Source of the DNA: Escherichia coli
GTDB taxonomy: Bacteria > Pseudomonadota > Gammaproteobacteria > Enterobacterales > Enterobacteriaceae
Assembly (NCBI RefSeq): GCF_044324875.1
Contig: NZ_CP172185.1
DNA: 64,000 nt
Direction: 5' to 3' (one strand)
The position numbers and the translations under genes were made by a program. Below, one piece after another: positions 3,618 to 50,809 of this stretch; position 1 is the first letter of the stretch; every line of letters begins with the position of its first letter. The notes under the pieces are model-generated. The model worked only from the letters and a program-made list of their open reading frames with translations, did not search any database and was not told the DNA's origin.

Positions 3618-4205
3618 TTACTTTTGGAAGGCTTTTTTTAAGCTGATTTTGGAAATCAGCTCTGTCAGTGAAAGGACCATTGTTGATCGCACAGCCTGTT
3701 GGTAACGCTGAATTTGCATTGCATACAAACTGGAGTCTGCAGGTTCAAACTGTGGCGGCGGTGGTAACGCCGCCACGCAATGCAGTTCACCAAAGGGTCC
3801 AAGGATTTCGTCGTCGGTAAACGCGTACTCGTTGCCGTCGTGATTTAGCTCTTCACGCAATGCCATCAGTAGCTCCGCATCTTCGTATTCCTGGCGGTTA
3901 ATGACGCCCAACCCGTAAATGAGTTTTAAACGCACAGAAAGATCGCCCAGCGGACCGTCGCCGTCGAGTAACGGTTCTACAGCATACTTCACCGCGTAAT
4001 CGTCTTTGCGGAATACCTGAAGCACCAGAAGATTTACCGCCTCGGTCAAAAGCTCGACGGCGGTGATCAGAAAGCTTCGCACGGTTTTGCCAGCATTCAG
4101 ACGCTCAAGCACACGGTTTTCAAAGGCCTGGGTTTGTTCCATTGTTGCCTGCATATCTGACAATCTGTTATTCGGGCGCAGGGTATCCTGCGCCTGGTCC
4201 ACCAT
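3618..4205 (-). CDS. mtlR: Mannitol operon repressor MtlR
   Basis: 195-aa ORF immediately downstream of mtlD on the same strand. Confidence 0.9.
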   Translation of the reverse strand: MVDQAQDTLRPNNRLSDMQATMEQTQAFENRVLERLNAGKTVRSFLITAVELLTEAVNLLVLQVFRKDDYAVKYAVEPLLDGDGPLGDLSVRLKLIYGLGVINRQEYEDAELLMALREELNHDGNEYAFTDDEILGPFGELHCVAALPPPPQFEPADSSLYAMQIQRYQQAVRSTMVLSLTELISKISLKKAFQK

Positions 4206-5353
4206 TATTGCATTGCTTTATAAGCGGTTACCGCCTCGGATACAACCTCGCTGTTGGCATCAAGACCGGAAATCTGTGCCAGCGCCGCCTGCGGACCTTT
4301 GTCAGCGATCAGTGCTGCCAGTTCCTGAGCCTGCGGATCATCTTCACTGCGGAAGTGCATTGCAGCGGCAATACCTTCAATCAGGTTTTTATGTGGCAGA
4401 CCATATTCCAGCGTTCCGAGCAGTGGCTTGATCAGACGGTCGCCAGCACTCAGTTTACGCAGCGGCTGACGGCCTACGCGCTCTACATCATCTTTCAGAT
4501 ACGGGTTCTCGAAACGACCGAGGATTTTCCGGATGTACGCCGCATGTTTGTCTGCGTCAAAGCCGTAGCGCTTGATCAATACTGCACCACTTTCTTCCAT
4601 CGCACCTTTTACCACCGCGCGGATTTTCTCGTCGAGAATAGCGTCACGAATGGTCTGATGACCGGCCAGTTTTCCGAGGTACGCGGTTATAGCATGACCC
4701 GTGTTCAGGGTGAAGAGTTTACGTTCGACAAATGCCATCAGGTTGTCGGTTAACTCCATGCCTGGAATGTTCGGCAACGCGCCTTTGAACTGGGTTTTAT
4801 CAACAATCCATTCGCTGAATGTTTCTACCGTCACTTCCAGCGGATCGTTGGTTGCAGAAGCCGAAGGCGGCACGATGCGGTCAACGGCGGAATCGACAAA
4901 GCCAACGTGTTCTTCTACCCACGCTTTGGCATCTTCCGGCAGGGCGTTCATTACATGGCCTTTCAGCTGCGTGGTGCCGCGTACCATGTTTTCACAGGCG
5001 ATGATGTTCAGCGGGGATTCATTACCTTGTTCTTTACGTTTCACCAGCCCTTTGGCGATTGCCGGGGCAATACGTTCCAGCACAACCGGACCAACGGCGG
5101 TAGTGACTAAATCAACCTGAGCAATCAGATCAACGACATCATCACCAATGCTGCTGACGGCATTGACGCCGGAAACGGTATCTACCTGCTCGGTTTCACC
5201 GACCACATGAACCTGATAGCTATGACGGGCATTCAGGGCATCAAGTACCACCTGATTGACATCGGCAAACGTCAGTTGGATACCCGCGTCTGCCAGCAGT
5301 TTACCGATAAAGCCACGACCGATATTACCTGCGCCAAAATGTAATGCTTTCAT
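4205..5353 (-). CDS. mtlD: Mannitol-1-phosphate 5-dehydrogenase
   Basis: Track ORF trimmed to the internal ATG at 5351-5353 giving [15 protein letters not shown] (Rossmann GxGxxG), 382 aa. Confidence 0.95.
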
Positions 5354-5581: not shown

Positions 5582-7495
5582 TTACTTACGACCTGCCAGC
5601 AGTTCCAGCACTTCATCCACGCTGGTGGTGTGTGCCAGACGCTCGATGACAGACTCATCATCCAGTGCATTGGTCAGGCTGGTGATAACCTGAATGTGCT
5701 CGTTGTTACGGGCAGCAATACCAATCACCAGACGGGCAATGTCATCTTCTTCTTCACCGAAGCGCACGCCTTCCGGGTACTGGCAGAACACCACGCCCGT
5801 TTTCAGTACGCGATCTTTCGCTTCAACCGTACCGTGCGGTACCGCGATGGACTCACCCAGATAAGTCGGGGTCAGTTTTTCACGATCCAGCATCGCCTGA
5901 ACGTATTCCGGCTCAACGTAACCGCCTTTCACCAGCTGCTCGCCAGCAAAACGAATCGCTTCTTCTTTGGTGGCCGCTTTGCGACCGAGGAAGATGTTCT
6001 CCGCGCCCAGTTTGAACAGGTTAGCACTGGAATCGTCAAAGCTGTCTTTCAGACTGTCTTTCACTTTCACTTCGTTTTCAGTATGGCGCTGGGCAGCAAC
6101 CAGACGTTCGGTCAGGCTGGTGTACAGGCCGCTGTCGAGGAAGTTGGTCAGCGAAATATGCTGTGCCTGCGGAACCTGGCGCATAGCGCGTTCGGTCAGG
6201 TCACGGTGAGTGATGACCAGGTCCACATCTGGCGGCAGGTTGTTGATCGCGCTGTTAGTAACAGAAATCTGCGACAGACCTGCATCCTGAATTTTCTTAC
6301 GCAGCACACCTGCGCCCATCGCACTGGAACCCATACCGGCATCACAGGCAACGATGATTTTACGTACGTGGCTCAGGTCGTTAGTCACATCGCCCGCAGA
6401 CAGCGGGGACGCACCTTTAGACTCAGCTTTCATGTCCTGCATACGACGAGTTGCTGCTTCAATATCATCTTCTTCTTTCACTTTGCTGGTTTTCAGCAGA
6501 ATGGCAGAGACAACGAAGGAGACAGCCATCGCCGCACACACACCCGCGATGTTAGCGAAATAAGCACCTTTTGGTGTCATCGCCAGTACAGCAAGGATAG
6601 AACCCGGAGATGCCGGAGAAACCAGACCACCGCCCAGGATAGTCAGCGTGAACACGCCAGTCATACCACCGAGGATAACGGCCAGAATCAGACGCGGATT
6701 CATCAGCACATACGGGAAGTAGATTTCGTGGATACCGCCCAGGAAGTGGATGATTGCCGCACCGCCCGCAGACTGTTTAGCGCTACCACGACCAAAGAAC
6801 ATGTACGCCAGCAGCACGCCCATACCCGGACCTGGGTTAGCTTCAATCAGGAAGAAGATGGATTTACCCAGTTCATGGGACTGCTGAATGCCCAGCGGCG
6901 AGAAGATACCGTGGTTAATGGCGTTGTTGAGGAACAGGATTTTCGCCGGTTCAACAAAGATAGACGCCAGCGGCAGCATGTCATGGACAACCATGAAGTT
7001 AACGCCCGCAGCCAGCATTTTGGACAGGGCTTCAACAATCGGGCCAATGCCGAGGAATGCCAGAATAGCGAGGATCATCCCGATGATGCCTGCGGAGAAG
7101 TTATTCACCAGCATCTCAAAACCGGATTTGATCTTACCGTCTACCCAGCGGTCGAAGTGCTTAATGCACCAGCCACCCAGCGGACCTGCAATCATAGAAC
7201 CGAGGAACATCGGCATGTCTGCGCCGACGATAACGCCCATGGTGGTAATGGCACCGACTACGCCGCCACGTTCGCCGCCTACCAGCTTACCACCGGTATA
7301 ACCGATCAGCAGCGGCAGGAGATAAGTGATCATCGGCCCGACCAGCTTCGCCAGCGTTTCGTTCGGTAACCACCCTGTTGGAATAAATAACGCGGTGATG
7401 ATACCCCACGCGATAAACGCGCCGATATTTGGCATCACCATGTTGCTGAGGAAACGACCAAAGCTTTGCACTTTGATCTTAATATCGGATGACAT
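5582..7495 (-). CDS. mtlA: PTS mannitol-specific EIICBA component
   Basis: 637-aa ORF, MSSDIKIKVQSFGRFLSNMVMPNIGAF..., long membrane domain followed by EIIB and EIIA domains. Confidence 0.95.
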   Translation of the reverse strand: MSSDIKIKVQSFGRFLSNMVMPNIGAFIAWGIITALFIPTGWLPNETLAKLVGPMITYLLPLLIGYTGGKLVGGERGGVVGAITTMGVIVGADMPMFLGSMIAGPLGGWCIKHFDRWVDGKIKSGFEMLVNNFSAGIIGMILAILAFLGIGPIVEALSKMLAAGVNFMVVHDMLPLASIFVEPAKILFLNNAINHGIFSPLGIQQSHELGKSIFFLIEANPGPGMGVLLAYMFFGRGSAKQSAGGAAIIHFLGGIHEIYFPYVLMNPRLILAVILGGMTGVFTLTILGGGLVSPASPGSILAVLAMTPKGAYFANIAGVCAAMAVSFVVSAILLKTSKVKEEDDIEAATRRMQDMKAESKGASPLSAGDVTNDLSHVRKIIVACDAGMGSSAMGAGVLRKKIQDAGLSQISVTNSAINNLPPDVDLVITHRDLTERAMRQVPQAQHISLTNFLDSGLYTSLTERLVAAQRHTENEVKVKDSLKDSFDDSSANLFKLGAENIFLGRKAATKEEAIRFAGEQLVKGGYVEPEYVQAMLDREKLTPTYLGESIAVPHGTVEAKDRVLKTGVVFCQYPEGVRFGEEEDDIARLVIGIAARNNEHIQVITSLTNALDDESVIERLAHTTSVDEVLELLAGRK

Positions 7496-7638
7496 AAAAA
7501 CACCCCTTCTTATGTTTGCTGTCGCGCAGGCTGGAAGCCCGAGGTTTTTTGTTAATGTGGCGGCAGAGGTAGCCGGACCTTGTAGATACTGCGAAATCTG
7601 GCACTGAATCGGTTAACTGTCCAGTCGACGGCCTTTTG

Positions 7639-7815
7639 TGTGATATCGGTCACATAAATATAGGGGGTAGAGAGGTAATTGACGTGATGCTCATCACAAA
7701 ACTATTGTGTAAAAAAGCAACAAGGCGGCGATTTTCGCTAAAAATGGCATTTAAATGTGAGTAATGTCACATTTTTGTTTTGTTGGTTTGTTGAATCTTT
7801 GTGATCTGAATCACA
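7639..7815. promoter_or_regulatory. mtlA upstream control region with an array of CRP-type sites
   Basis: TGTGA-N6-TCACA matches at 7639-7654 (tgtgatatcggtcaca), 7683-7698 (cgtgatgctcatcaca), 7756-7771 (tgtgagtaatgtcaca), 7800-7815 (tgtgatctgaatcaca), plus a half-site at 7843-7847. Confidence 0.6.
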
Positions 7816-8031
7816 AGATATTTTCTTACGGCGTTCACCTGATGTGATCTACAGCATGTTATGCCCTCGTCATAAAATCGTTATGTAACTAAGCAACTCA
7901 TCACCTCTAAAAATTATTCTTTGGTGTTATGGCGAGAATCGCGAACCCGAATTATTGTCAAAATATCAGCCTGACTCCCTTCTGGCTGCCAGCCAAAAAA
8001 CAACACTGATAAACGTGAATCCGAGGCAGAT

Positions 8032-8394
8032 ATGTTTCTAAACTATTTCGCGTTGGGAGTGCTGATCTTCGTCTTTCTGGTGATTTTTTATGGAATCATC
8101 GCGATACATGACATCCCTTATCTGATTGCCAAAAAGCGCAACCACCCCCATGCCGACGCTATTCATACAGCGGGCTGGGTGAGCCTGTTTACTCTGCATG
8201 TTATCTGGCCGTTTCTGTGGATCTGGGCGACGCTCTATCAACCGGAGCGCGGCTGGGGCATGCAGTCACATGTTGCGTCGCAAGAGAAAGCGACTGACCC
8301 GGAAATCGCCGCACTTTCTGACCGAATTTCCCGGCTGGAGCACCAACTCGCCGCCGAGAAAAAGACTGACTATTCCACGTTCCCGGAGATCTAA
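8032..8394 (+). CDS. yibI: Small inner-membrane protein, DUF3302 family
   Basis: 120-aa [24 protein letters not shown] with N-terminal TM segment; GAGG-like SD upstream; paralog of yiaW at 17175. Confidence 0.85.
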
Positions 8395-40539: not shown

Positions 40540-41718
40540 CTACAACATGACCTCGCTATTTACATCGCGATACTCTTTTGGCGTCGTGTCATATGCTTTT
40601 TTAAAAACAGAGTAGAAATATTGCAGCGATGGATAACCGCACATTTGCGATATCTCATTGATCGACAAGGTGGTTGAAATCAGCAGACTGCGCGCTTTCT
40701 CCAGCTTCTCGGCATGAATCATGGCATGGATGGTTTCACCCACCTCTTCTTTAAAACGCTTCTCAAGATTGGAGCGCGAGATCCCGACCGCATCGAGTAC
40801 CTGATCCACTTTAATCCCTTTACAGGCGTTATTACGAATGTAATGCATGGCCTGAATAACGGCGGGATCGGTCAGCGAGCGGTAATCTGTTGAGCGCCGT
40901 TCAATGACGCGAACTGGTGGGACCAAAATCCGCTGTAGCGGCATTTCTTCTTTATCTAATAATCGATGCAACAGTTTTGCCGCCTGATAGCCCATTTGCC
41001 GCGCGCCCTGAGCGACCGAAGAAAGGGCGACACGCGACAGATAGCGGGTCAGTTCTTCGTTATCGATGCCAATCACGCATAATTTTTCCGGTACGGGAAT
41101 GTGTAGATGTTCACATACTTGCAGAATATGCCGCGCCCGGGCGTCAGTAACGGCAATAATCCCGGTTTGCGGTGGCAGCGTTTGTAGCCAGTCTGCCAGC
41201 CGATTTTGCGCGTGTTGCCAGTTCTCTGGCGCGGTTTCTAACCCCTGATAAACCACTCCGCGATACTTTTCTTCGGCGACAAGCTGACGAAATGCATATT
41301 CGCGTTCAGTGGCCCAACGTTTACCGCTTGATTCCGGAAGACCATAAAAAGCAAAGCGGTTAACGCCTTTCTCTTTTAAATGCAAAAATGCGCTTTCAAC
41401 CAGCGCATAGTTATCGGTGGCAATGTAATGAACGGGTGGGTAACTTTCGGCAAGGTGATACGAGCCACCAACCCCAACAATGGGGACGTCGACATCAGCC
41501 AGCGCTTGCTCGATTTGTTTGTCGTCGAAGTCGGCAATGACGCCATCTCCTAACCAGTCCTTGATTTTATCAATGCGGGCGCGGAAATCTTCTTCAATGA
41601 AAATATCCCATTCCGATTGTGACGCCTGTAAATATTCCCCTACGCCTTCTACTACCTGCCGGTCATAGGCTTTATTGGCATTGAACAGTAATGTGATGCG
41701 GTGACGTTTAGTAAACAT
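40540..41718 (-). CDS. xylR: Xylose operon activator (AraC family with periplasmic-binding-protein-like domain)
   Basis: 392-aa ORF, C-terminal AraC HTH. Confidence 0.95.
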   Translation of the reverse strand: MFTKRHRITLLFNANKAYDRQVVEGVGEYLQASQSEWDIFIEEDFRARIDKIKDWLGDGVIADFDDKQIEQALADVDVPIVGVGGSYHLAESYPPVHYIATDNYALVESAFLHLKEKGVNRFAFYGLPESSGKRWATEREYAFRQLVAEEKYRGVVYQGLETAPENWQHAQNRLADWLQTLPPQTGIIAVTDARARHILQVCEHLHIPVPEKLCVIGIDNEELTRYLSRVALSSVAQGARQMGYQAAKLLHRLLDKEEMPLQRILVPPVRVIERRSTDYRSLTDPAVIQAMHYIRNNACKGIKVDQVLDAVGISRSNLEKRFKEEVGETIHAMIHAEKLEKARSLLISTTLSINEISQMCGYPSLQYFYSVFKKAYDTTPKEYRDVNSEVML

Positions 41719-49813: not shown

Positions 49814-50809
49814 TTAACTCACTAGTCTGTTTCTGTCGATTCGTTGTACCAGCATAGAAAGTAATAAACTCGCTGCCAACGTCGCGCAAAAGATCCAAAT
49901 AATATCGAGTATTGGCCAGTTTTTAAGCTCAATCCCCCGGGTGCGCAGTGCATGGATAATCAAGGCGTGGAACCCGTATATGCCCAACGAATGGCGGGAG
50001 ATTAAGCCAAGTCCGCGAACGGTACGCGTATCAAGCGTGTTTTTAACCAGAGTCAATAGCGTGATTGCGCAGATAAAAACCATCGGCCCACAGTAAAGAT
50101 ACCAGGTATCGGCAAAATTTCCGCGCCACTGCAATTCATATAATGTCCCGCGAGAGATAATAAAAACCCCCGTCGCAAACAGTGCGGCGCTCCCCCACGA
50201 CAGTGCTTTATGCTGTGTGTCCATCATCCCTATAGCGCGGCCCAACATGCCATAAAGGATGTAGTAAAAAGTATCGCCATTGATATATAAGTTAATTGGC
50301 AGCCATTCAAAACCGTCAATTTTCTGCGGCACTGTGTTTGGGTTAGCGATAATACCAATCACCACCATTAGCACCAGCAACATTTTTCCGCCGACGTTCT
50401 TCACCTGAATCAGCGGTGAAACCAGATAAATCACCGCAATCGCGAAGAAAAACCATAAGTGGTAAAACACTGGCTTTTGCAGCAGGTTTTTCAGCGCTAA
50501 CTCCACATTGATGGAGGTAAACAGCGCAATGTAGAGCAGTGCGATTGCGCTATAAAAAAGCAGACATAAGCCGATACGCAAGAAATGGCGCGGCTGGGCG
50601 CTGCGTTCGCCAAAAAAGGGATAGCCGGAAATCATGAAAAATAGCGGCACGCTGACACGAGAGGCAGAATTCAGAACATTGGCGATATCCCATGTGACGG
50701 GGCTAACACTATGAGCATTGGTCACATACCAGGTAGTGGTGTGAATCATCACCACCATTAAACACGCTATCCCTCGCAGGTTATCAATCCAGTAAATTTT
50801 GGGCTGCAT
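49814..50809 (-). CDS. wecH: Acyltransferase-3 family O-acetyltransferase
   Basis: 331-aa polytopic [27 protein letters not shown]. Confidence 0.85.

Follow-up and report, generated by a model that had tools for sequence, protein, structure and literature searches.

The spacer between mtlA and yibI in the window (the whole stretch of 64,000 nucleotides, or 64 kb, of Escherichia coli DNA that was analysed) is almost certainly the control region of the E. coli mtlADR operon, serving as activator array and operator alike, with five documented CRP sites and a weak, extended -10 sigma-70 promoter. The existence of a CRP array at mtlA is already known in detail. The spacer is flanked by mtlA on the minus strand (7495 to 5582) and by yibI on the plus strand (from 8032). 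Among 5426 complete genomes of E. coli, 5402 have it, and its flanks are always annotated as mtlA and yibI. The regulated gene, mtlA (5582-7495, minus strand), encodes the mannitol PTS protein EIICBA, as seen from its open reading frame, its Pfam EIIC, IIB and EIIA domains and the RefSeq annotation. Downstream of it on the same strand lie mtlD (4205-5353), coding for mannitol-1-phosphate 5-dehydrogenase (open reading frame, Pfam Mannitol_dh domains and K-12 annotation), and mtlR (3618-4205), coding for the repressor that docks on CRP pairs (open reading frame; Pfam PF05068, E = 2.4e-66). The cognate MtlR is thus encoded within the operon that it regulates, and its sequence is 100% identical to that of K-12 MtlR. 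On the other side of the spacer, Pfam assigns YibI to DUF3302 and describes YibH as HlyD-like.

The window was searched for the pattern TGTGANNNNNNTCACA (TGTGA-N6-TCACA) with at most one mismatch, and dinucleotide shuffles (n=100) served as the control. The search yielded six matches per 64 kb, four of them in the mtlA-yibI spacer; the remaining two are located at positions 41100 and 50693. Perfect matches number three in the entire window, and all of them fall inside one 177-bp stretch. The promoter-proximal site, CRP5 (TGTGATATCGGTCACA, 7639-7654, centre 7646.5), has a perfect core. It is followed by CRP4 (CGTGATGCTCATCACA, 7683-7698, centre 7690.5), which carries one mismatch (CGTGA), and by CRP3 (TGTGAGTAATGTCACA, 7756-7771, centre 7763.5) and CRP2 (TGTGATCTGAATCACA, 7800-7815, centre 7807.5), both with zero mismatches to the 16-bp palindrome. 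The most distal site, CRP1 (TGTGATCTACAGCATG, 7843-7858, centre 7850.5), opens with TGTGA at 7843-7847 and has three mismatches, corresponding to 7 of 10 core positions. The four near-perfect sites and the half-site of the preliminary description are therefore all present. Its figure of roughly 40-60 bp for their spacing proved to be loose, the actual distances from CRP5 to CRP1 being 44, 73, 44 and 43 bp between centres and 28, 57, 28 and 27 bp between edges. Three pairs of sites are accordingly 43-46 bp apart (CRP5-CRP4 and CRP3-CRP2 at 44 bp, CRP2-CRP1 at 43 bp); no further pair of sites with up to two mismatches was found at 43-46 bp elsewhere in the 64 kb window.

Could such an arrangement be a chance run of CRP-like words, or a functionless repeat artefact? 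Taken alone, CRP1 would be compatible with this explanation, as its 7/10 core is no better than that of 225 other positions in the window and is not significant by itself; it is placed exactly 43 bp from the neighbouring perfect site, CRP2. For the array as a whole, we regard the explanation as virtually impossible. At the background rate, about 0.0055 sites are expected per 177 bp, versus the four sites with at most one mismatch that are seen, so that their number lies far beyond chance. The shuffled sequences contained a mean of 1.61 matches and in 0 of 100 cases reached the window total of six. Conservation of the cores across the species examined and the recurrence of the region in the complete E. 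coli genomes counted above likewise argue against it.

The five CRP sites of the E. coli mtl operator have been placed at -262.5, -219.5, -175.5, -102.5 and -58.5, with spacings of 43, 44, 73 and 44 bp (Lee et al., NAR 2026, PMC13421365). A comparison of the window with the mapped mtlA promoter and operators, which had been named earlier as a way to check the array, showed that the centres at 7850.5, 7807.5, 7763.5, 7690.5 and 7646.5 coincide exactly, in position and in spacing, with published CRP1 to CRP5, respectively. The first description of the five mtl sites is said to be that of Ramseier and Saier in 1995, reportedly with footprinting. Between the spacer (561 bp) and that of K-12 MG1655, there are 12 substitutions and no insertions or deletions, and none of the substitutions falls in a core pentamer. 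The region is hence the same locus as the K-12 mtlADR control region, having identical core pentamers, spacings (43/44/73/44), promoter hexamers and MtlR, and differs from it only by these strain-level substitutions. The N6 centres of CRP3, CRP4 and CRP5 account for five of the 12 substitutions, against an expectation of about 0.6 over the 30 bp of N6; CRP5 differs from its K-12 counterpart in the N6 centre alone.

The mtlA promoter (7588-7623, minus strand) consists of the -35 hexamer TGGACA at 7618-7623 and an extended -10 element made up of TG at 7602-7603 and CAGATT at 7595-7600, the hexamers being read from the sequence. We placed the transcription start site at ~7588 on the minus strand, which gives a 5' UTR of 93 nt, because the published site positions are relative to the S1-mapped start; as it rests on old S1 mapping, this position may be 1-3 nt off. 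CRP5 at -58.5 does not quite coincide with the canonical class I positions. In an ungapped stack of 12 other enterobacterial species, the -35 element CTGGACAG is invariant and the extended -10 element GTGCCAGATT is different at one position in two species. A generic promoter and terminator scan returned no more than chance and did not flag the mtlA promoter. Two further promoter readings were considered and rejected: the plus-strand combination TTGACG-18-TATTGT at 7679-7708, as a divergent promoter, is not conserved in other species, and a second promoter on the mtlA strand via TATATT at -74 to -69 has a poor -35 element (3/6) and no other support. We also rejected an MtlS-like or other known RNA element, because positions 7300-8200 gave no match to Rfam at E <= 1.

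The -35/-10 spacer of the mtlA promoter contains a Cra (FruR)-like box, ACTGAATCGGTTAA (7603-7616, plus strand), a partly conserved candidate by motif that fits the Cra/FruR consensus, RSTGAAWCSNTHHW. The literature reports a Cra site in the mtl promoter and repression of mtl by both Cra and Fis. A Cra-like box at this location would suit the reported repression by Cra.

Whether CRP actually occupies the sites had been left to footprinting or ChIP data in the preliminary description; published SELEX, ChIP-seq, EMSA and site mutants show that CRP is bound and that expression depends on the sites. Among the clones of CRP genomic SELEX, the yibI/mtlA spacer came second in abundance (38 clones), and PhyloScan ranked it first genome-wide for CRP sites. 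CRP ChIP-seq in ETEC gave two peaks here, for which the 16-mers of CRP2 and CRP1 and those of CRP5 and CRP4 are listed; the CRP4/CRP5 peak was assigned to mtlA and the CRP2/CRP1 peak to yibI (PMC4287617). The 16-mers of CRP2 and CRP1 in the window are identical to those in the ETEC table. In addition, the 16-mer TGTGACGGGGCTAACA in the 5' part of wecH (50693-50708), with one mismatch to the CRP core, is identical in sequence to an intragenic ChIP-seq site of ETEC H10407 (PMC4287617). All biochemistry referred to here is that of the published K-12 and ETEC work.

The published genetics assigns different weights to the five sites. CRP is essential for mtl transcription, and chromosomal replacement of CRP2, CRP4 or CRP5, each singly, abolished both mtlD expression and growth on mannitol (PMC13421365). 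Mutation of CRP3 resulted in a slight drop in expression, and CRP1 is weak, dispensable and normally unoccupied (PMC13421365). The sites are therefore not redundant, as losing CRP2, CRP4 or CRP5 alone is enough to abolish expression. With five CRP sites upstream of one sigma-70 promoter and CRP5 in a class I-like position at -58.5, the arrangement is that of a class III promoter, because far-upstream sites are also required besides CRP5.

The spacing of the sites is linked to a second function. MtlR has no DNA-binding domain and supershifts CRP-DNA solely when two CRP dimers are 43-46 bp apart, with an optimum of 44-45 bp; it docks on the CRP4-5 pair in EMSA (PMC13421365). The 73-bp CRP3-4 pair and the 34-bp malK pair did not bind MtlR unless they were re-spaced to 44 bp (PMC13421365). 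An earlier paper of the same laboratory did not detect the MtlR-CRP interaction without DNA. CRP pairs 43-46 bp apart recruit MtlR, and the array therefore constitutes an operon-specific operator as well as an activator platform. Accordingly, the proposal that the array exerts strong catabolite control on the mannitol PTS operon holds inasmuch as CRP governs mtlADR, but is incomplete in that the 43-44 bp spacing also recruits MtlR. For CRP binding, the requirements of the sites and the docking of MtlR, we rely on the K-12 literature, which presumably applies to the window too, given that the cores, the spacings and MtlR are identical.

The sequence, spacing and conservation of the array were determined directly. 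For the comparison, we used 12 other enterobacterial species with the array upstream of mtlA, including Pseudescherichia, several Enterobacter, Superficieibacter, Klebsiella, Citrobacter, Pluralibacter and one MAG labelled only as Proteobacteria. The 44/73/44 spacings are retained without any indel in 12 of the 12 species; the distance of 44 bp in the pair that matched the search pattern is given by construction, and only the other spacings of each locus are independent. When the 12 species were stacked without gaps, the register was kept over ~300 bp. Invariant columns are concentrated in the cores (37 of 50), are absent from the N6 centres (0 of 30) and are sparse between the sites (13 of 140). 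CRP4 and CRP5 are conserved in the 12 other species. A CRP1-like site at 43 bp, with up to two mismatches, is found in eight of the 12, and only the half of CRP1 that faces CRP2 is conserved.

In a further scan, covering one genome of each species, we looked for pairs of perfect CRP 16-mers with 14-44 bp between them (30-60 bp centre to centre) and retrieved at least 120 stretches. Among the matches listed, 15 pairs have their centres 44 bp apart, and 14 of these are placed directly upstream of an mtlA homologue (67-100% identity). The only pair with another spacing upstream of mtlA among these matches comes from an Actinobacillus locus, which has a 44-bp pair as well, and the pairs not spaced by 44 bp belong to other loci, for instance at 52 bp in the glpT/glpA spacer of Pasteurellaceae. 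The enterobacterial matches are phylogenetically related, and the 44-bp pairs listed represent about three independent lineages (Enterobacteriaceae, Orbaceae and Pasteurellaceae). Among the matches listed, a perfect CRP pair at 44 bp is thus nearly diagnostic of mtlA promoters. Upstream of its mtlA homologue, Actinobacillus sp. GY-402 has three perfect CRP sites spaced by 40 and 44 bp, and the Orbaceae locus has two perfect sites 44 bp apart. The 73-bp module of the enterobacterial species is absent upstream of mtlA in both the Actinobacillus and the Orbaceae loci. Perfect CRP pairs at 57-58 bp centre to centre were seen at no fewer than five non-mtl loci in Enterobacter, Superficieibacter, Yersinia and Serratia; one of them is near atpC and another in a divergent sugar-transporter spacer.

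These patterns bear on a simpler account of the array, namely that the sites are redundant, additive activator elements that ensure strong catabolite control and that their spacing has no special role. Such an account would accommodate the indispensability of CRP for mtl expression and the high CRP affinity of the sites that is suggested by their abundance in SELEX. It is nevertheless very improbable in view of the loss of expression in the single CRP2, CRP4 or CRP5 mutants. Furthermore, the 12 other species keep the spacing with single-base-pair precision as the sequence between the sites drifts, the cross-genome matches listed show the 44-bp pair almost only at mtlA promoters, and spacing variants gain or lose MtlR binding in EMSA (PMC13421365).

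The reading of the array as a combined activator platform and MtlR operator leads to the following picture. At high cAMP, CRP dimers would occupy CRP5, CRP4, CRP3 and CRP2, with CRP1 remaining largely empty, and CRP5 at -58.5 would act in a class I-like manner. When mannitol is absent, an MtlR dimer would bridge two CRP dimers 43-46 bp apart and thereby block activation; the pairs bridged would be CRP4/5 and CRP2/3 or, alternatively, CRP1/2. In the presence of mannitol, dephosphorylated EII-Mtl (MtlA) would hold MtlR at the membrane, and in the presence of glucose, dephosphorylated HPr would compete for MtlR so that repression is restored. The last two steps follow published findings: mannitol transport leads to dephosphorylation of EII-Mtl and to MtlR being sequestered at the membrane, and dephosphorylated HPr competes for MtlR and brings repression back in glucose. 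For the way in which the far-upstream sites activate transcription, the authors of the published work suggested looping or anti-silencing.

Several characterized systems resemble this arrangement. The malEp-malKp control region, with three to four adjacent CRP sites, is likewise a dense CRP array in a divergent spacer that forms a higher-order nucleoprotein activation complex; it differs in that its sites are 34 bp apart and work with MalT, and that MtlR is recruited solely after re-spacing to 44 bp. In CytR-CRP anti-activation (deoP2, cdd and similar promoters), a repressor is likewise held by contacts with two tandem DNA-bound CRP dimers, and the spacing of the pair provides specificity. CytR itself binds DNA and uses CRP pairs ~52-53 bp apart, whereas MtlR has no DNA-binding domain and uses pairs 43-46 bp apart. 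The spacings of 43, 44, 73 and 44 bp in the window do not include the ~52-53 bp pair of a CytR-type operator, and the one CytR-like octamer noticed, GTTGCTTT, lies inside the T-tract block described below and is not conserved; we therefore rejected an involvement of CytR. The mtlA promoter of Vibrio cholerae also has five verified CRP sites essential for activation, including pairs at 43-44 bp that bind MtlR. In contrast to E. coli, whose spacer gave no RNA family match, V. cholerae has the cis-antisense sRNA MtlS and lacks the sequestration of MtlR by EII-Mtl.

The array had further been proposed to control the divergent yibI-yibH genes, a claim that the comparison did not support. Eight of the 12 other species keep the array with neither yibI nor yibH detectable in several kilobases upstream, and in the species that have yibI, its ATG lies about 120, 224 or 344 bp from CRP2. 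On these comparative grounds, the array follows mtlA rather than yibIH. In a bidirectional version of the model, the distal sites CRP1 and CRP2 would also activate or repress a divergent yibI-yibH promoter. In its favour, the spacer is divergent, and the SELEX authors noted that both promoters of such spacers are often controlled by CRP; the ETEC ChIP-seq table, moreover, gives the CRP2/CRP1 peak to yibI (PMC4287617). A candidate extended -10 element facing yibI, TGGTGTTAT (7922-7930), which would put CRP1 at about -86, is conserved in three of the four yibI-bearing species; E. coli, Citrobacter and one Enterobacter MAG have it, Pseudescherichia does not. In addition, yibI is regulated by condition, being induced in urine in UPEC. 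However, the ChIP and SELEX tables assign yibI by position alone, and a literature search for CRP-dependent expression of yibI or yibH, or for a mapped yibI start site, returned only such positional assignments and the induction in urine. The whole array occurs next to no yibI or yibH in the eight species, the distance from CRP2 to the yibI ATG is variable (~120 to ~344 bp), and CRP1 is weak and normally unoccupied (PMC13421365). We therefore consider bidirectional action of the array, and with it CRP control of yibIH in E. coli, unlikely.

The interval between CRP3 and CRP4 is exactly 73 bp in all 12 other enterobacterial species, and its edge-to-edge gap extends from 7699 to 7755. Inside this gap, at -134 to -119, lies a T-tract block (TGTTGCTTTTTTACAC, 7707-7722, minus strand) that is conserved in the ungapped stack. 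Its conserved form is TGTT(G/C)(C/T)TTTTTTACAC, and the opposite strand, GTGTAAAAAAGCAAC, resembles a Fis site. We presume the block to be Fis-like from the Fis motif and from the literature on repression of mtl by Fis. A second block, CCCCCTATATT (7657-7667, minus strand), is located between CRP4 and CRP5 and is conserved in most species examined. It includes a homopolymer at 7663-7667, which reads G5 on the plus strand and C5 on the mtlA strand. To this run maps a 1-bp insertion that reached fixation in an E. coli lineage during 1,200 days of stationary phase and is listed as 'mtlA/yibI intergenic (-172/-365)' (PMC7858067). By its position in the C5 run, the +1 insertion would leave CRP4 and CRP5 45 bp apart instead of 44 bp.

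The invariant, MtlR-incompetent 73-bp interval with its T-tract, the conserved CCCCCTATATT block and the fixed +1 insertion together suggest, as a tentative possibility, that the array is assembled into a fixed higher-order nucleoprotein complex. Such a loop or wrap, with CRP, MtlR, Fis or another factor involved, might be tuned by the spacing of the sites, and the distal sites might perhaps also feed a yibIH promoter in E. coli.

Taken together, the preliminary description recovered, from the letters alone, a promoter that is among the densest in CRP sites and the best characterised of E. coli. To what is published, the present analysis adds a phylogenetic footprint covering four intervals, the 73-bp one included, the near-diagnostic association of the 44-bp pair with mtlA, and indications that the array follows mtlA and not yibIH. 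The wider interest of the system, already published, is that the spacing of the sites, and not a DNA-binding domain, provides MtlR with its promoter specificity. If the complex tuned by spacing does form, the array would carry architectural information beyond that of the published CRP-MtlR pairs.
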